From the NCBI GenBank assembly GCA_049287205.1, contig JBAQFJ010000001.1, forward strand, positions 943,653 through 1,007,652: 64,000 nucleotides of DNA, in the 5' to 3' direction. Source of the DNA: Microgenomates group bacterium (GTDB lineage: Bacteria > Patescibacteriota > Microgenomatia > UBA10105 > UBA927). How positions within the stretch are numbered: position 1 is the first letter of the stretch; every line of letters begins with the position of its first letter. Of the stretch, positions 8,136 through 47,882 are shown in pieces. Below the pieces are notes generated by a model. That model was not told the DNA's origin. It saw only the letters and a list, made by a program, of their open reading frames with translations, and did not search any database. Made by a program: the position numbers and the translations under genes.

Positions 8136-9077
8136 TTACTTAAATGTAATCGTTGCCACAATCGATTTAAATACTGCGTCATCTGCAGCAAAATCGGCCG
8201 TGATACCACTCGGCGAGAAGTGATTTATTTCAAATGAGAGTGTATCCGTTACTTCAATCATGTATCCATGCATCGTTGTAAATGTATACCCGCCAACGGT
8301 TGACCCTGTTGTGTCTGTCGTATATTCAGTTGCTTTTTTTCCGCCAACTGTCGTTTCTTTGGTTATGAGCGCTTTTCCTGACGCATCACTGATGATTTTT
8401 CCCCGATAATCAGCAAGCACTTCCCCTACTCCACGTGGCGCGATGGTGAGTCGTGTTCCACCCGATAAATATGTACCTTGTGATCCGCAGCTTGACCCAT
8501 CACATACCGGTGCCAATACTGTTCCCGGAAGACTCAGTTGGATGGTAGTAATAGGAGATCTTGTTGTTCCATGAACCGGATTATACTGCTTCCAAGCACT
8601 TGAGGAGGCAAGTGGTGTTGGTGTAGTGAATGTTTTTGGTATAGCAAGCACTGAAAGACTACTCTCTGTCGCCACCGCTGTGGTTGGCAGTATTTCAGCC
8701 GGTGCAGTGGTTGGAGTAAGAATGGTTTTTGTTGTGACTTTTGATTCAGAAGTTTTTGTAATGAGGGTACGTATCACACCGCTTAATGCATATCCCACAA
8801 TGAAAAGAATAAGAAAGATAAAAAATCCTTTGATGAATGTTTTTGGTGACCGTTTGTTTGACGGCACTACAGGTGTTTCAACTGATGGAGGGGACATTGG
8901 TTCTTCAGCAGACATGGCGGGTGGTGTTTCCGGTTGTTTTTCACTTTGTTCCTGAATTGGAGTAATTACCGGTGTTTCTTCGTATTGGATATCGGGTGTT
9001 TGTACTTTTGGTTCAAAAGAAGTTGATTCGTCATCCATAGTAATAATTATTGTTTCACGAGTTGGAAACAGTGTCAA
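8136..9077 (-). CDS. Hypothetical Thr/Pro-rich, membrane-anchored extracellular protein
   Basis: Single TM helix (FFIFLILFIVGYAL) and a low-complexity T/P/S-rich region. Confidence 0.4.
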   Translation of the reverse strand: MTLFPTRETIIITMDDESTSFEPKVQTPDIQYEETPVITPIQEQSEKQPETPPAMSAEEPMSPPSVETPVVPSNKRSPKTFIKGFFIFLILFIVGYALSGVIRTLITKTSESKVTTKTILTPTTAPAEILPTTAVATESSLSVLAIPKTFTTPTPLASSSAWKQYNPVHGTTRSPITTIQLSLPGTVLAPVCDGSSCGSQGTYLSGGTRLTIAPRGVGEVLADYRGKIISDASGKALITKETTVGGKKATEYTTDTTGSTVGGYTFTTMHGYMIEVTDTLSFEINHFSPSGITADFAADDAVFKSIVATITFK

Positions 9078-9095: not shown

Positions 9096-9659
9096 TTATG
9101 CCCGTTCGACATAGCTTCCGGTTTCAGGATCAATGGCAATCAGTTCACCTTCTTTGATGAACAGTGGAACAGTAACAATAGCGCCCGTTTCAACAGTCAC
9201 TGTTTTTGTGGCTCCTGACATGGTATTTCCCTTTGCACCTTCCGTTGCCTCTGTTACCACAAGTCGAACTTTTTTAGGAAGCCGAATACCAACAGCCTCT
9301 TCTTCGTGAACGAGCACCTGATACGTGTCATTTGGTTTCAGGAATTTAACGAAGTCGCCAAGTAATGTTCCTTTTACTGTTACCTGATCAAATGTCTGAT
9401 TGTTCATAAACACATAATCGTCCCCTTCGGGATAGAGATATTGCATTTCCTGCGTTTCAACAGGAAGCTCCTCAACGGATTCACCGGATTTGTATGTGAA
9501 TTCCTGTACTTTTCCTGTGGTGAGTGATTTTAACCGAGTTCTTACAAATGCCGAGCCCTTACCCGGGTTGACGCGCTGAAATTCCACAATTTGGTGCGGT
9601 TGATCTTTAAACGTGATGAATATTCCGTTTTTGAAATCTGATGTTGTTATAGAGGACAT
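9096..9659 (-). CDS. efp: Translation elongation factor P
   Basis: Start taken at the internal Met (MSSITTSDFKNG). The conserved loop NPGKGSA carries Lys at position 34. Confidence 0.85.
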   Translation of the reverse strand: MSSITTSDFKNGIFITFKDQPHQIVEFQRVNPGKGSAFVRTRLKSLTTGKVQEFTYKSGESVEELPVETQEMQYLYPEGDDYVFMNNQTFDQVTVKGTLLGDFVKFLKPNDTYQVLVHEEEAVGIRLPKKVRLVVTEATEGAKGNTMSGATKTVTVETGAIVTVPLFIKEGELIAIDPETGSYVERA

Positions 9660-9684
9660 GGAAGCTATTATCCCACGAACAGGC

Positions 9685-10722
9685 TTATTTTTCAAACAGT
9701 TCAACACTTGGAAAGAAGAGTGTGTCAGCAATACGAGTTGTGTCGGCAAATAACATGATCAGCCGGTCAAGACCGACTGCAATTCCGCTTGTGTCCGGCA
9801 TACCAACCTTCAAGCTTTCAATAAAATCATGATCATAGTCATAGGTCGTTTTTCCGAGACGTTTAATTTCTGTGAGCTCCCAGTCAAATCGATCCTGTTG
9901 TTCTTTCCAATCGGTCAGTTCTGTATAACAATCGCCCAGTTCGAGACCACCGATATACCATTCAAACCGTTCTGCATAGTTTGGATTCTCTTTTTTCTTT
10001 TTAGACAAGGCAGCGAGGCATCCCGGAAATTCATAAATAATTGTGGGTTGGGTTTTTCCCAAATGCGGTTCAATTTCGTTGAGGTAAATCTGATCGTAGA
10101 GTTCTTCCCATGTGTTTGTATCTTTTACAGTATACCCTTTTTGTGCGGCAATGCTTCTTGCTTTTTTGTTGTCTAAAAATTCGTCAAAATTGATGCCAGC
10201 CCATTTTTGGAATGCTTCCTTGATTGTTATTTTTTCCCAAACGCCTGCAAGATCAAATGTCACTCCCTGATATGTGAGTGTATTTCCATTGCCAAGCGCA
10301 TGATTTATAGATAACAGCATATTTTTGCAGTCATCCATGAGTGATGTGTACGTTGCTCCTACACGATACCATTCAAGAATAGTAAATTCCGGATTATGTG
10401 TGTGACTGTCTGTTTCCATGTTTCTGAAGCTTTTTGTGATGCTGTAGCAATTGCCGATGCCAGCGACAATGAGTTTTTTTAGTGCAAGCTCCGGAGAAGT
10501 GGATAAATATGCGGGTATACTTTTTCGGTCTCTATCTAGTAGTTTTGTTTCAAAGACATCAAGGTAGCTTTCTGCAGCAGGCGCCCCAAGGAGTAAAGGA
10601 GTTTCAACTTCATGAAACTGTTCTTTATCAAAGAAGGAACGCACTCTGCGAATGACGTGTTCTCGAACGAAATATCGATCCCAGAGTTTCGGATTTTGCT
10701 TTAATGCTTGCCAGGTTTTCAT
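9685..10722 (-). CDS. epmA: EF-P lysine-34 lysyltransferase EpmA (PoxA/GenX) paralog of the class II LysRS catalytic core
   Basis: Class II motifs FHEVETPLL and FRNMETDSHTHNPEFTILEWY are present and there is no N-terminal anticodon-binding domain. Start at MKTWQALK, where ATGA overlaps the upstream ORF's stop. The gene sits immediately upstream of efp. Confidence 0.65.
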   Translation of the reverse strand: MKTWQALKQNPKLWDRYFVREHVIRRVRSFFDKEQFHEVETPLLLGAPAAESYLDVFETKLLDRDRKSIPAYLSTSPELALKKLIVAGIGNCYSITKSFRNMETDSHTHNPEFTILEWYRVGATYTSLMDDCKNMLLSINHALGNGNTLTYQGVTFDLAGVWEKITIKEAFQKWAGINFDEFLDNKKARSIAAQKGYTVKDTNTWEELYDQIYLNEIEPHLGKTQPTIIYEFPGCLAALSKKKKENPNYAERFEWYIGGLELGDCYTELTDWKEQQDRFDWELTEIKRLGKTTYDYDHDFIESLKVGMPDTSGIAVGLDRLIMLFADTTRIADTLFFPSVELFEK

Positions 10723-10988
10723 GAAGACCGTTTTTTCTTTGTTGCCCTTTTTGCCATTGGTTTTGCGCCAATTCCTGCAAAAGCTCTCACGACAAACAAG
10801 AGATAACAAATTTCCAGAATTCCCACTGTGTTTACTACCAATAGTCCGATAAACCACCATTTTTCATTTCGTTTCGCGGCATGCCATAAGGCAAATCCTT
10901 TCCATGCAAGACTCCAAATCATTGTGGGAATAAAACCGATACTCATCCATGGAAGCATGTTTATTGTTTCTCCGTTTAGCCAGTGCAT
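10719..10988 (-). CDS. Small Trp-rich membrane protein (2 TM), translationally coupled to epmA
   Basis: 89 aa with two hydrophobic helices. Its stop overlaps the epmA start (ATGA). Confidence 0.4.
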   Translation of the reverse strand: MHWLNGETINMLPWMSIGFIPTMIWSLAWKGFALWHAAKRNEKWWFIGLLVVNTVGILEICYLLFVVRAFAGIGAKPMAKRATKKKRSS

Positions 10989-10997
10989 AGTCCCCCT

Positions 10998-11678
10998 TTA
11001 TTTCATAAGTCGGTATACCTTGGCTTTTTCTTTCAGCGCGGCATACCACGTTTGTAATTGTTCACTAACTTTTTGTGTAAGAATTGCTTCCCGTGCTTCT
11101 TTTTGCATTCCATCAGAGTCTGTTGCAATAAGGGTTGACGGGTTATCTGCAATGTATGTTGTCACCTCATCATCAGTGATTGTGATATCTTTTCCGATGA
11201 TTTTTGTAAGCTGCATCTGTAGTTTGATTTGCTGATCAAAATCTTCTTTCGTCATTCCCTGATAGCTCAAGACTTCCTCTAATGTGACATTTCCACCGAA
11301 ACTTGCAAGAATTTCTTGTTCTTTCGCTTCAATTTCTTCTTTTGACACGGTCACTTTTTGTTTTGCCGCCTCGTCGCTGATGAGCTGTTCTGTAATCATG
11401 TTTTCCAGTGTTTGTGTTCCATATCGTGATACAAGCGCTTTATTTACCGTTGATCTGAAAATAAGTTTATTATTCACTACTGCAGCTATGATAAGGCCGC
11501 GATTTACCGCGAGAATTCCAAGAATAATTACACCAAGAACGATTGCGATGATTCCTGTTTTTGAAATACCTGTCTGTTTCGAAGGCTCAACTTGGAATGT
11601 CGGAAGTTCACTAGGCATAAAAACAACTTTTTTTGCCTGTGAAATTCGTTTTTTTGCGGTTTTCATTTTCTTTGCCAT
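10998..11678 (-). CDS. Membrane-anchored SurA/PrsA N-terminal-domain-like chaperone protein
   Basis: N-terminal TM helix, then a SurA_N-like region (NNKLIFRSTVNKALVSRYG...). No obvious PPIase domain. Confidence 0.45.
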   Translation of the reverse strand: MAKKMKTAKKRISQAKKVVFMPSELPTFQVEPSKQTGISKTGIIAIVLGVIILGILAVNRGLIIAAVVNNKLIFRSTVNKALVSRYGTQTLENMITEQLISDEAAKQKVTVSKEEIEAKEQEILASFGGNVTLEEVLSYQGMTKEDFDQQIKLQMQLTKIIGKDITITDDEVTTYIADNPSTLIATDSDGMQKEAREAILTQKVSEQLQTWYAALKEKAKVYRLMK

Positions 11679-11771
11679 ATAGGTTGCTCCTTTTTAAACG
11701 GACAGATGAATCTTGCTATGGGTATCATCCTATCATGTTTTTGGGCGCGAAACAAGAAAAATCTTTTTTAA

Positions 11772-43310: not shown

Positions 43311-43383
43311 GGGCCCGTAGCTTAGCTGGTAGAGCGCATCATTTGCAATGATGAGGTCACCGGTTCGAATCCGGTCGGGTCCA
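43311..43383 (+). tRNA. tRNA-Ala (anticodon UGC)
   Basis: GGGCCCGUAGCUUAGCUGGUAGAGCGCAUCAUUUGCAAUGAUGAGGUCACCGGUUCGAAUCCGGUCGGGUCCA with a G3:U70 pair. Confidence 0.9.
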
Positions 43384-43935
43384 CAATAAAAAGTTCGTTT
43401 CGCGGGATAAGCGATTACTGAGTAATCTTTTATCTCGCGACAAGAGCGCGTCGTCGCGTAAACCGCGACAATAGCACTTTTACAATATCAATAGTATCTT
43501 CCTTTATAAATAGGACAAGGAAGATACATGGTTTTTTTGAATGAAATATGAGTAGTTACATCGTAAGGGATAATCTTAAATGTTGATTACCTGTTACGAT
43601 GACATTTCGTTGGGCGACAATTTTTTTATTAAATGAGTCGAGAAAAATAGAGCAAAGCGCGCTAATTAATTTTAGCTCCTTTGTTCTCTGCAACGCTTTT
43701 AAAGTTGATAATGGATGCCCTGGGTATTCATGCCGAGGAAGGACGTATATGACAGCGATATTCGTCGGGGAGGAGTCATAATCCTGTGATCCGGCGGTTT
43801 CCGAATGGGGAAACCCGTCTAGTGAAGAACTAGTCAATGTACGATGAAGATAACCGAAAGGTTGGGATAGTCGTATGTAGGATACCGGGCGAACTGAAAC
43901 ATCTCAGTAGCCTGAGGAATAGAAATCAAGTACGA

Positions 43936-43967
<32 letters not shown>

Positions 43968-45684
43968 AAGTCTAAACCACAGCGCAAGTTGTGGGGTTGT
44001 AGGGCTTTCGATCTGGAATGCAATTGGTGATAACAGAATACCGTGGAATAGGAAACCAAAGAACGTGAAAGTCGTGTATGTGAAATTACCAATTCTCCTA
44101 GAGAGTTCCTAAGTACCATGGACCACGAAGGGTCTGTGGGAATCTGGGTCAACCACGATCCAAGACTAAATACATGAATGCACCGATAGTGAACAAGTAC
44201 CATGAGGGAAAGGTGAAAAGCACCCCGGAAGGGGAATGAAATAGTACCTGAAATTATCAACTAACAAACAGACGAAGTCCTGCAATCGCAAGATTTGGAT
44301 AACGTCGTGCCTATTGAAGAATGAACCGGCGAGTTGCCCAGTACGGCTTTGCTTAATCAAGTAACCCTTGAGGAGGCGTAGTGAAAGCGAGGTCTAATTG
44401 ACCGATTATGTTGTACTGGACAGACCCGAAACCAGGTGAGCTAACCATGAGCAGGGTGAATGTTGACGAAAGCCAACAAGAGGCCCGAACTCGTCAGAGC
44501 TGCAAATCTGTGAGATGACTTGTGGTTAGGGGTAATATGCCTATCGAACCTGGAGATAGCTGGTTCTCCCCGAAATATATTTAGGTATAGCGGTTACTAA
44601 TTCCCGGAAGGGGTAGAGCACTGAATGATACGTGTTTCGCAAGGAATACGCATCAATCAAACTCCGAATACTTTCCGTGATACCGTAACTAGTCAGACAT
44701 GCACGGCTAAGCGCGTGTGTCAAGAGGGCAACAGCCCGGACTTACATCTAAGGTCTCTAAGTGTGTGCTCAGTGGTTAAGGAAGTTATGAATTTAAGACA
44801 CCCAGGAAGTTGGCTCAGAAGCAGCCACCTTTTAAAGAACGCGTAACAGCGCACTGGATGAAATTCGTAGCGCCGAAAATGAACGAGGCTCAAGCACGCC
44901 ACCGAAGATTAAGATGTGCCGTAAGGCACGTGGTAGGGGAGCGTTCTGTTCTGCGGTGAAGGTTAGGCTGTAAGGCTGACTGGAGCGGACAGAAGTGAGA
45001 ATGCCGGTATGAGTAGCGTTTGGAAGTGAGAATCTTCCATGCCGAATGCGCAAGGTTTCCGAAGCAACGTTCGTCGACTTCGGGTAAGTCGGATCTAAGC
45101 CGAGGCCATTATTTTGATGGCGTAGGTCGATGTATAAACGGTTTATATTCCGTTACTATAGTGTATTGATTAAGACACAAAGGAATGACAATGAGGGATT
45201 TGTTGATGTCTCGCACTCGCGGGATCTAAGCATTAAAGTAGTGAGGACTGGTAAATCCGTTCTCATGTTTAACTAAAGATGTGGGGGAGTTTGAGGAGCA
45301 ATCCGATGACAACATCAATCGTTTCTTATTCGAGAAAAGTTTCGTTGTGAAATACATTGTATCCGTACTAATAACCAACACTGGTGCGCTGGTAGAGTAT
45401 ACCAAGGCAAGCGGGCGACAGCAGTTTAAGGAACTCGGCAACAAAAACTAGGTGTAACTTATTGGAGATACCTTACCTAGAGCAATCTAGGTCACAGTAA
45501 ACGACACTATGCAACTGTTTAACTAAAACACAGGTCTCTGCGAAGCGGAAACGCAACGTATAGGGGCTGACACCTGCCCAGTGCCGGTAAGTTAAAAATG
45601 GTCGGTAAACAAAAACGTAAGTTTTTTTAGCTGGCTTTTTAAGCTCCGGTGAACGGCAGCAGTAACTATAACTGTTCTATGGTA

Positions 45685-46292
45685 AATTTTCGTTGCTATA
45701 GTGAGGTAGACAAACCTCTCTTTTATTCCCCGTGCAAAAGGAAGGCGGGATAAAAGAAAAATTGTGCTAAATGCTGGAAACTCTGAGTATCTTGTGCTAC
45801 TATGTGTTATATGACACATAGTGAAAAAGCATCAAGTGCAGACAATCAGCAGGAAAGATTGGATCCGTGGTGGATTGTAGGATTTGTTGATGGAGAAGGA
45901 TGTTTTTCCGTTAGTACGTTTAAAAATTCAACTTGTTCAAGTGGGTTTCAAACTCTTTATGAGTTTGTGGTCACACAAGGAGAAACGAGTAAACGAGCTA
46001 TGGAAGCAATCAAAACTTATTTTGGTTGCGGAGCGATTTATATAAATCGCAGACATGATAACCATCATCACGATCTTTTACGATATTGTGTACGAAAGCA
46101 GGAAGATTTGAAAACAAAAATCATCCCGTTTTTCAGAAAATATCCATTACAATCTGCAAAACAAGAACAATTTGAGACATTTTGTCAAAAATTGTTTGAT
46201 CCAAAATCCTCAACGACTATACGCACAACTCGGTAAAACGAGAAGATATAGTCTGATCTTCATGGCGACATGAAGTTAACAAATTTTTATGA
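45685..46292 (+). other. Group I intron in 23S domain IV, after GGTA and before GCGAAATTCC (E. coli ~1931 site), carrying a LAGLIDADG ORF
   Basis: The exon sequence is interrupted between ...AACTGTTCTATGGTA and GCGAAATTCCTTGTCGGG. Boundaries are accurate to within 1-2 nt. Confidence 0.7.
45802..46236 (+). CDS. LAGLIDADG homing endonuclease (single-motif, I-CreI-like), intron-encoded
   Basis: VGFVDGEGCF motif. Located inside the 23S intron. Confidence 0.8.
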   Translation: MCYMTHSEKASSADNQQERLDPWWIVGFVDGEGCFSVSTFKNSTCSSGFQTLYEFVVTQGETSKRAMEAIKTYFGCGAIYINRRHDNHHHDLLRYCVRKQEDLKTKIIPFFRKYPLQSAKQEQFETFCQKLFDPKSSTTIRTTR

Positions 46293-46912
46293 GCGAAATT
46301 CCTTGTCGGGCAAGTTCCGACCCGCACGAAAGGTAGAATGACATAGTGACTGTCTTAAACTGTTACCCGGCGAAATTGAAATGGCTGTGAAGATGCGGCC
46401 TACTCACACATGGACAAAAAGACCCCATGAAGCTTTACTGCAATTTGGCACTGAAGAGTTTATTTTAACTGTCGAGTATAGGTGGGAGCCTTCGGGCGAA
46501 CAATGGAATACCACTCTTTAAAATGAATGAATCTTACTTACTCCTACATAAAAATCTAGGAGCAGGACACTGTCTGATGGGCAGTTTAACTGGGGAGGTT
46601 GCCTCCAAAAGTGTAACGGAGGCGTGCAAAGGTTGGCTAATCCTGAATGGAAACCAGGACGTGTCGTGCAAACGCGATAAGCCAGCTTGACTGCGAGACG
46701 TACATGTCGAGCAGATGCGAAAGCAGGCGTTAGTGATCCTCGATACCCTCGTGGGAGGGTTCGGGCTTAACGGATAAAAGCTACTCTGGGGATAACAGGC
46801 TGATCGCTTCCGAGAGTCCATATCGACGAGGCGGTTTGGCACCTCGATGTCGGCTCATCCTATCCTGGGGCTGTAGAAGGTCCCAAGGGTCCGGCTGTTC
46901 GCCGGTTAAAAG

Positions 46913-46948
<36 letters not shown>

Positions 46949-47310
46949 AGACCTTAGTGGAATAGACGCCACTATAACGAGCTGTCCATCCTTTACCGTT
47001 CTAGAATCTTTGTATATCGAGAAATTTTAAAGGATCCCGCAAAACAATACTAATTATATTGAATGCGGGAATAAATCTGACTAATTGCTGGAAACACTCA
47101 GTATCTAATACTACTTTTAAAAAAAGTAACAATGTATTAGTGGAGTCAATCAGCAGGGAAGGCCCCGCCTTGGCGGGGAACCCTCAGAGACTATATGTCA
47201 GATCTGGCTTCGCCAGAAAGATATAGTCCGAACTGTATGGCGACATACAGACTGCAGCAGAAATGCGTGCAGAGTCGTTTTTACATCAAAAAACGATATT
47301 AACATTATTG
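46949..47310 (+). other. ORF-less group I intron in 23S domain V, inserted after GAGACAGT and before TCGGTC (E. coli 2593 / I-CreI-type site)
   Basis: The exon resumes with TCGGTCTCTATCC...CTAGTACGAGAGGACCG. The intron ends in G. It shares an AAGATATAGTC...ATGGCGACAT core-like block with intron 1. Confidence 0.7.
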
Positions 47311-47754
47311 TCGGTCTCTATCCTGTGTGAGCGTTCGATTCTTGAGGGGAGTTCTCTCTAGTACGAGAGGACCGAGAGGAACAGATCCCTGGTTTGCCTG
47401 TTGTCACCCTGAGAGGTGGCACCGCAGGGTAGCTAGATCTGGAAGGGATAAGTGCTGAAAGCATCTCAAGCACCAAGCCCACCCCAAGATGAAGAATCGT
47501 TGAAGATCCGTTGTAGATGACAACGTTGATAGGCGAGAAGTGTACGCACCGTGAGGTGTTCTAGCTTACTCGTACTAATTGATCGAATGTTGTGGAGAAC
47601 AAAGGAAGATTTGTTCTATTCCCAAACGATATGAACATCGCCTCTGGGATCAGCAACAAGATTATCCCTTATGTGTAATTACTCATTCAAAAAGTGTGAA
47701 TATTGATATTAACAATTAAATATTGGTAAAATAGCGAATCGAGAACCGCTCTAG

Positions 47755-47882
47755 AGTTCTCCAGTTTTTTGAGCGACGTGGCACCACCCGATCCCATCCC
47801 GAACTCGGAAGTGAAACGCGTTAGCGCTGACAATACTTGGTCCGCGAGGTCCTGGGAAGATAAGTCAAAGCTGGGGAACTGT
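47755..47882 (+). rRNA. rrf: 5S ribosomal RNA (boundaries approximate)
   Basis: CCCATCCCGAACTCGGAAGTGAAACGCGTTAGCGCTGA core, and a helix I GTTCTCCAG/CTGGGGAAC extended into a long processing stem. Confidence 0.7.

Follow-up and report, generated by a model that had tools for sequence, protein, structure and literature searches.

Can a bacterium with a genome of about 1.02 Mb attach (R)-beta-lysine to its elongation factor P (EF-P), and if it does, where would the beta-lysine come from? The question is raised by a locus in a stretch of 64,000 nucleotides (the window) from a Microgenomates group bacterium, in which efp, the gene for EF-P, follows a gene for a paralog of lysyl-tRNA synthetase (LysRS).

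Organization of the locus

Four genes running in the same direction on the minus strand span positions 9096-11678 and code for a SurA_N_3-like protein, a DUF5652 protein, a LysRS-like catalytic core and EF-P. The first-pass annotation had described an EF-P gene, a LysRS paralog and a protein with two transmembrane segments, and we recovered all of these elements at the same positions, on the minus strand. The features, in order of transcription, are the following.

10998..11678, minus strand: SurA_N_3-like membrane-anchored protein (Pfam SurA_N_3, E=1.5e-7), the upstream neighbor, given for context
10719..10988, minus strand: DUF5652 small membrane protein of 89 aa with two predicted helices (Pfam PF18893, E=1.7e-22)
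9685..10722, minus strand: epmA, paralog of the class II LysRS catalytic core, 345 aa, predicted (R)-beta-lysine ligase for Lys34 of EF-P
9778..9780, minus strand: epmA codon GCA for Ala315, aligned with A298 of E. coli EpmA (gate for the alpha- or beta-lysine backbone)
9096..9659, minus strand: efp, three-domain elongation factor P, 187 aa (TIGR00038 and three Pfam domains)
9558..9560, minus strand: efp codon AAG for Lys34, predicted beta-lysyl acceptor at the tip of the NPGKGSA loop

Both the ATGA overlap and the Lys34 loop of efp, already reported at first pass, can be read directly from the sequence. The start codon of epmA (ATG, 10722-10720) lies within tcttcATGAaaacc, where ATGA (10719-10722) is common to this start and to the TGA stop of the DUF5652 gene, whose product ends in ...RSS. 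The choice of this start is backed by an N-terminus, MKTW(Q/E)KL, that is kept in relatives (MKTWQ). The ATG of efp is at 9659, which leaves a gap of 25 nt to the epmA stop. For the DUF5652 gene, the Logan gene call places the start 10 codons further downstream, which gives a protein of 79 aa. These open reading frames are real genes and not chance ones, and a protein identical to the window EpmA stands in NCBI as MFZ2025597.1 ([quoted passage not shown]). epmA and efp form a co-directional pair, and the DUF5652 gene upstream of it probably belongs to the same transcript. A scan of the region for promoters and terminators gave nothing beyond chance, and an Rfam search of the same region returned no RNA element.

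To place the locus among its relatives, we scanned one genome per species; of the 598 loci that this gave for relatives of the query, we analyzed the best 80 (L numbers below).

Assignment of the LysRS-like protein to the EpmA family

The LysRS-like protein might be an EpmA, or it might be the sole LysRS of the genome, a housekeeping enzyme in truncated form. Pairwise scores against solved structures do not tell the two apart, as the best LysRS scored 195 bits and the EpmAs of E. coli and Salmonella about 173 bits; the likeness to LysRS catalytic domains thus matches that to E. coli EpmA. No second LysRS-like sequence was found in the window (tblastn, E<1), and this search for a full-length LysRS covered 64 kb of the roughly 1.02-Mb genome, which also leaves some room for the truncated enzyme. 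Since pairwise scores fail to split EpmA from LysRS, profile scores, the gate residue and a tree are needed. The same scores, in which LysRS does at least as well as the enterobacterial EpmA, also mean that the subclade of the window protein is distant in sequence from the enterobacterial enzyme.

The EpmA call made for this paralog at first pass is supported by the family models, as the protein passed both NCBIfam cut-offs for EpmA, with 320.7 bits for the equivalog TIGR00462 (genX; cut-off 286.9) and 276.9 bits for NF006828 (cut-off 264), but failed those for LysRS. The LysRS models gave 249-266 bits against cut-offs of 428-468 (for TIGR00499, 249 bits against 427.6), about 180 bits short. 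Pfam detected tRNA-synt_2 alone, and the protein aligns with residues 167-501 alone of E. coli LysS, with an identity of about 32% to this core, which bears out the earlier observation that the anticodon-binding domain is missing. Class II LysRSs (LysS/LysU) share the catalytic fold and its motifs with the window protein, but they carry the anticodon-binding domain and have Gly at the gate, as opposed to the Ala of the window protein. In the alignment of this gate, the window protein reads TSGIAVGLD (Ala315 lies in SGIAVG), E. coli EpmA CSGVALGVD and LysS TAGLGIGID. Ala was found at the gate in 50/50 CPR, 6/6 Chloroflexota and 13/13 classical EpmAs, against Gly in 11/11 LysRSs, and each of these EpmAs, like the window protein, bears the Ser/Ala signature equivalent to S76/A298 of E. 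coli EpmA. Residue A298 serves as a gate for backbone selectivity, at which Ala favors (R)-beta-lysine and the substitution A298G reverses the preference to alpha-lysine; the conversion of E. coli EpmA into a LysRS required a grafted anticodon-binding domain together with A298G (Lassak laboratory preprint, bioRxiv 10.64898/2026.07.07.736966). A truncated housekeeping LysRS with neither the domain nor the Gly is difficult to reconcile with these findings.

A phylogeny against genuine LysRS, which the first-pass annotation had proposed as a check, puts the window protein on the EpmA side. The neighbor-joining (NJ) tree, built by this distance method only, comprised 49 sequences and 333 columns, with EpmA-like and LysRS proteins from 80 genomes and E. 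coli references; in it, the bipartition between LysRS and all EpmA-like sequences, the window protein included, had a bootstrap of 100/100, and the window protein was nested among the EpmAs of CPR bacteria. Homologs sharing 63-88% identity number in the hundreds; they are from Gottesmanbacteria and further Patescibacteria, and the names EpmA or GenX are already attached to many of them. Moreover, the gene is fixed beside efp in about 56 genomes (among the best 80 of 598 loci), which also speaks against a housekeeping LysRS. As far as family scores, domain content, phylogeny and the gate residue can tell, the protein is a true EpmA; on the same four grounds we rejected the truncated LysRS, to which we leave practically no chance.

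The putative substrate and its loop

The EF-P of the window scored 226.7 bits with TIGR00038 (cut-off 185.8) and matches the Pfam domains EFP_N, EFP and Elong-fact-P_C, corresponding to the KOW-like, OB and C-terminal domains. Its pairing with the LysRS paralog, on which the first reading of the locus had been built, stands: efp lies 25 nt downstream of epmA and K34 is present. Lys34 is invariant in every EpmA-adjacent EF-P (64 aligned loci). The surrounding loop is (F/H/R)-V-(N/S)-PGKGSAF in CPR bacteria and Chloroflexota, and FVKPGKGQAF in Proteobacteria and Acidobacteriota. The EF-P of E. coli and Salmonella has the PGKG loop with Lys34 as well, and E. coli EF-P differs from that of the window at the flanking positions, with F29, K31 and Q36 as opposed to R29 (found in this lineage), N31 and S36. 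In E. coli EF-P, the identity elements for EpmA are F29, K31, G33 and K34 (PMC3950694); the window protein keeps G33 and K34, while two of the four differ (F29 to R and K31 to N). Asn or Ser at position 31 is found throughout the CPR/Chloroflexota subclade, and N31 occurs also in Chloroflexota with an adjacent aminomutase gene. The absence of the identity elements at 29 and 31 marks a difference between subclades, not an exclusion from the EpmA family, and to judge from these substitutions the recognition of EF-P by EpmA must differ in detail. We found 22 Pro-Pro motifs in 17 of the 65 open reading frames of the window, so EF-P has clients in this genome; their frequency, 0.34 per protein, compares with a quoted 0.49 per protein for E. 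coli, and their count is somewhat below the random expectation from the proline content.

Distribution and kinship of the pair

The first-pass annotation had regarded the system as an unexpected retention in a minimal genome, and this part of it did not hold. About 50 species-level CPR loci among the best 80 of the 598 have epmA as the immediate upstream neighbor of efp, both genes being on one strand. They come from genomes of several classes; the groups represented are, among others, Gottesman-, Woese-, Pace-, Peregrini-, Peri- and Wirthbacteria, Parcubacteria and Minisyncoccia. As EpmA is kept across the lineage, its retention in a reduced genome is the rule and no surprise. NCBI already names the exact protein EpmA, and a patchy spread of EpmAB across many phyla, Chloroflexi included, was known before (PMC2821294; PMC11388002). 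The epmA-efp pair is, then, ordinary: it is standard in this group of tiny genomes and correctly labelled in public databases. The roughly 50 CPR loci with this gene order also comprise many records labelled as uncultured Gammaproteobacteria or Pseudomonadales, which nest among the CPR sequences.

The order epmA-efp is shared by six Chloroflexota loci among the best 80 of 598 (L025, L030, L033, L036, L039 and L049), whose EF-P loop, FVNPGKGSAF, is of the CPR type. With 43-51% identity, the EpmAs of Chloroflexota are the closest non-CPR relatives among these 80 loci, and in the NJ tree they form one subclade with those of CPR bacteria (bootstrap 67/100). A search of a literature library for EpmA or EF-P in Patescibacteria/CPR, or for an aminomutase in CPR, found nothing relevant, and a broad survey of EF-P does not mention Patescibacteria (PMC11388002).

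The DUF5652 neighbor

The small protein encoded upstream of epmA is a member of DUF5652 (PF18893, 79.4 bits against a Pfam gathering threshold of 23.4) with two hydrophobic helices. In the first-pass annotation it was an unexplained membrane protein coupled to epmA; the overlap of the two genes is indeed there, although only 4 of the 11 loci with the pair have it, and the protein now has an identity as a DUF5652 member that is a neighbor of epmA in one clade only. It might be a functional partner of EpmA, for example one that tethers or regulates EF-P modification at the membrane, with translation coupled through the ATGA. We surveyed the neighborhood in the best 80 of the 598 loci. The window and 10 related loci, namely the closest relative (L002) and nine Gottesmanbacteria-like species-level genomes, have the gene as the immediate upstream neighbor of epmA; the 4-nt overlap is found in the window, L002, L010 and L015. 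DUF5652 is missing from this position, however, in five loci of the same Gottesmanbacteria-like clade (L009, L011, L012, L014 and L018), and among those 80 loci no other CPR class and no Chloroflexota locus has it there. Where the pair exists without the overlap, the spacing is -1 to +52 nt, so that the whole range runs from -4 to +52 nt. Stop/start codon overlaps are common in compact genomes, which further weakens the argument from the ATGA. Finally, the whole block of SurA-like gene, DUF5652, epmA, efp, a gene for a 300-aa protein and the ValRS gene is syntenic in the Gottesmanbacteria-like clade, so the conservation of DUF5652 as a neighbor needs no functional link. The SurA_N_3-like gene is syntenic in L002-L017 and in L047; separately, a 33%-identical homolog of its product adjoins a KamA-like gene in a Roizmanbacteria genome. 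Given the restriction to one clade, the variable spacing and the block synteny, we rejected DUF5652 as a component of the system and think it very improbable that it is a partner of EpmA. The coupling with epmA looks like gene packing and synteny in a compact genome.

Probable source of beta-lysine

The first-pass annotation had stated that no epmB is in the window, and tblastn at E<1 indeed found no KamA/EpmB-like sequence in the 64 kb; with E. coli EpmB as the query, tblastn detects the KamA proteins of CPR bacteria at E values of about 1e-58 to 1e-68. Nor did any CPR locus (among the best 80 of 598) have an aminomutase gene at less than 10 kb from epmA. CPR bacteria are metabolically reduced symbionts, and the lack of a KamA in the window and near epmA in about 50 CPR loci (best 80 of 598) could mean that the system is partial, with EpmA and EF-P present without an aminomutase and EF-P either beta-lysylated with beta-lysine acquired from a host or the environment, weakly alpha-lysylated or left unmodified, as was suggested for Buchnera aphidicola APS. 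There are precedents, as yjeA occurs without yjeK in Buchnera APS and in Planctomyces limnophilus (PMC2821294), and partial EF-P modification systems in symbionts have been discussed (PMC5354580). Non-adjacency, nevertheless, tells little, because epmB is unlinked from epmA in E. coli and the aminomutase gene is not adjacent in several Chloroflexota loci; in addition, the window covers only 6% of the genome.

We therefore looked at KamA genes in the relatives. In two Chloroflexota loci (L039 and L049), as opposed to none of the CPR loci, kamA adjoins the pair directly downstream of efp (order epmA-efp-kamA), and it is also adjacent in several loci of Acidobacteriota and Proteobacteria. The Chloroflexota KamA is nearest to the NCBIfam model AblA_like_2 (TIGR03822; 387 bits against a cut-off of 396), and not to the EpmB model (TIGR03821). 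Used as a protein query, this efp-linked KamA matched mostly Chloroflexota and Alphaproteobacteria; one match on a 955-kb contig (P0215) proved to lie in a GC-rich, alphaproteobacteria-like locus with efp, epmA and kamA. Filtering the KamA matches for an AT-rich amino-acid composition led to P0221, which as a new query gave the CPR set. This set comprises KamA-family proteins named by NCBI from Candidatus Gottesmanbacteria (P0260), Roizmanbacteria (P0326), Microgenomates, Parcubacteria and "Patescibacteria group"; P0326 is encoded on a complete Roizmanbacteria genome of 1.10 Mb (CP066689.1). In the CPR KamA, the CxxxCxxC motif is intact, as are the lysine for PLP and a pair of Asp residues matching D293 and D330 in the Clostridium lysine 2,3-aminomutase 2A5H, which, from the literature on 2A5H, we take to bind the epsilon-amino group of lysine.

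Between both match lists there was no case of EpmA and KamA on one contig, and the only case within one assembly was the MAG JACOXO01, in which KamA (P0260, L093) is on contig 15 and EpmA (L040) on contig 17, unlinked. No KamA from the 1,020,031-bp source contig of the window was among the 120 matches listed. That KamA-family genes occur in a number of CPR classes (Gottesmanbacteria and Roizmanbacteria among them), and in one case together with EpmA in a single MAG, argues against a partial system, which we consider unlikely although it deserves to be kept in mind. Regarding the substrate, the first-pass annotation had offered a choice between alpha-lysine and an epmB elsewhere in the genome. 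The second option is favored here, as a prediction, because of the Ala gate and of the unlinked CPR KamA genes; alpha-lysine as the preferred substrate is disfavored by the same two observations, the gate being Ala in 50/50 CPR EpmAs. Most likely, beta-lysine would come from an unlinked KamA-family aminomutase encoded elsewhere in the roughly 1.02-Mb genome, one nearest to AblA_like_2 and not to the enterobacterial EpmB.

Proposed mechanism and comparison with known systems

Taken together, we think it quite probable, on the strength of sequence comparisons, that the pair works as an EF-P beta-lysylation system with beta-lysine from an unlinked KamA. In the proposed mechanism EpmA, a LysRS catalytic core that would have lost the tRNA anticodon-binding domain, activates (R)-beta-lysine with ATP and would transfer it to Lys34, and the modified EF-P would relieve ribosome stalling at Pro-Pro motifs. 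The pair belongs to a CPR and Chloroflexota subclade of the beta-lysylation system. The gene identities, family membership, synteny and gate residue, and the existence of KamA genes in CPR bacteria, are observed; the chemistry, the co-transcription and the aminomutase of this particular genome are what we infer.

The best-known counterpart is the system of E. coli and Salmonella, formed by EpmA (PoxA, GenX, YjeA), EpmB (YjeK) and EF-P. There, too, EpmA is a LysRS core without the anticodon-binding domain, and like it the window protein passes the EpmA equivalog models and carries the Ser/Ala pair at S76/A298. About 7 kb separate epmA from efp-epmB in E. coli, so there as well the aminomutase gene need not be adjacent. 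The differences are several: E. coli EpmA is 20 aa shorter, the window has the order epmA-efp, unlike E. coli, and the aminomutase of the relatives is nearest to AblA_like_2 (TIGR03822), unlike E. coli EpmB (TIGR03821). The two EpmAs also fall on opposite sides of the first split in the EpmA clade of our single NJ tree, a split that is unsupported (14/100 and 8/100). A reduced genome offers a second comparison, since the host-dependent Buchnera aphidicola APS likewise keeps poxA and efp (PMC5354580; PMC2821294). Buchnera APS is without yjeK, whereas KamA-family genes are found in several CPR lineages, so the CPR system is probably complete.

Of the possible readings for the window itself, a true lack of the aminomutase is the only one of real interest. 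It is improbable, in our estimate, that the genome of this Microgenomates bacterium, possibly along with many others of the CPR, holds EpmA and EF-P without an aminomutase, with the full activation of EF-P in need of beta-lysine from the host. If it were true, it would be a host dependency at the level of translation and a large-scale case of the trend towards partial EF-P systems in symbionts anticipated earlier (PMC5354580); if many CPR genomes had EpmA and no aminomutase, this would point to beta-lysine supplied by the host, a connection of symbiosis with translation that could be tested. The weight of the finding for the window is small, as annotation pipelines already name its genes correctly. 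Within the CPR/Chloroflexota subclade, some relatives have accessory genes, which, like the loop signature and the unlinked aminomutase, have been unstudied so far. As a by-product, the analysis outlines how EF-P beta-lysylation is organized in CPR/Patescibacteria, a system that is widespread in them and related to that of Chloroflexota, with a loop signature of its own and an unlinked aminomutase of the AblA_like_2 type.

Gene order and signals around efp

Two features flank the start and the end of efp in the window:

9667-9695, minus strand: promoter-like site TTGAAA-17 nt-(TG)GATAAT, within the 3′-terminal part of epmA, its end 8 nt short of the efp ATG
8136-9077, minus strand: gene downstream of efp for a protein of ~300 aa with a Pro/Thr-rich N-terminal region and one membrane helix

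Starting from this putative site, the efp transcript would be near-leaderless; the scan that detected it returned 12 sites against 10.7 expected, a total not above chance. The ~300-aa protein had no match in Pfam, and the position of its gene downstream of efp is kept across the Gottesmanbacteria-like clade.

In some relatives, other genes lie between epmA and efp:

L007 ~11062-11520 (also L010, L011, L013 and L047): GNAT acetyltransferase, 152 aa (Pfam Acetyltransf_1, E=4e-19)
L014 ~11035-11739 (also L013 and L016): YggS-like PLP-binding protein, ~234 aa (Pfam Ala_racemase_N, E=8e-14)

The GNAT gene, which separates epmA from efp in several Gottesmanbacteria-like genomes, is absent from the window. 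Since GNATs act as partners of lysine 2,3-aminomutase in the synthesis of N-acetyl-beta-lysine, it is conceivable that the inserted enzyme is tied to the chemistry of beta-lysine or of EF-P. As for the YggS-like protein, PLP also serves KamA/EpmB as cofactor.

Extended forms of EpmA

Four proteins of the EpmA clade carry 90-135 additional residues at the N-terminus and retain the Ser/Ala signature:

L053:985-2412 (Peribacteria), directly upstream of efp
L056:9728-11035 (Wirthbacteria), directly upstream of efp
L059:3043-4332
L062:9602-10975

The added region had no match in Pfam in any of the four, and the alignment of the L053 protein with E. coli LysS begins at LysS residue 25. These proteins may represent a form of EpmA with a leftover, degenerate OB/anticodon-binding-like domain.

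Taxonomy of the records and rRNA genes of the window

Many MAG records named 'uncultured Gammaproteobacteria' or 'uncultured Pseudomonadales' (L010-L014, L016, L017, L019, L021 and L023, among others) show CPR-type synteny. Their EpmAs nest among Gottesman-/Pacebacteria sequences, and one of the records is an 886-kb 'chromosome'. The taxonomy assigned to them looks wrong or a placeholder.

The rRNA genes of the window are arranged as follows:

43311-47876: stretch with tRNA-Ala, 23S rRNA and 5S rRNA
43688-47597: 23S rRNA, 3.9 kb
46993-47250: group I intron inside the 23S rRNA
47760-47876: 5S rRNA

No 16S rRNA was found upstream of the 23S within the window, and the intron-containing 23S is apparently unlinked from it, an arrangement typical of CPR bacteria.

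Neighborhoods of the aminomutase genes

In Roizmanbacteria CP066689.1 (L098:10001-11726), a KamA-like gene is directly followed by a SurA_N_3 gene, whose product is 33% identical to that of the SurA-like gene of the window (10998-11678); a LysE-family gene is also nearby. In the window, the SurA-like gene precedes DUF5652-epmA-efp. This gene order hints at an ancestral kamA-surA-epmA-efp neighborhood that would have been split later. A cluster comprising efp, an EpmA-like gene (345 aa), a TctC gene and a KamA gene of the AblA_like_2 type is present in L088, a GC-rich, alphaproteobacteria-like contig of 955 kb. This clustering shows that the AblA_like_2-type aminomutase fills the EpmB-equivalent role outside Chloroflexota and CPR too.
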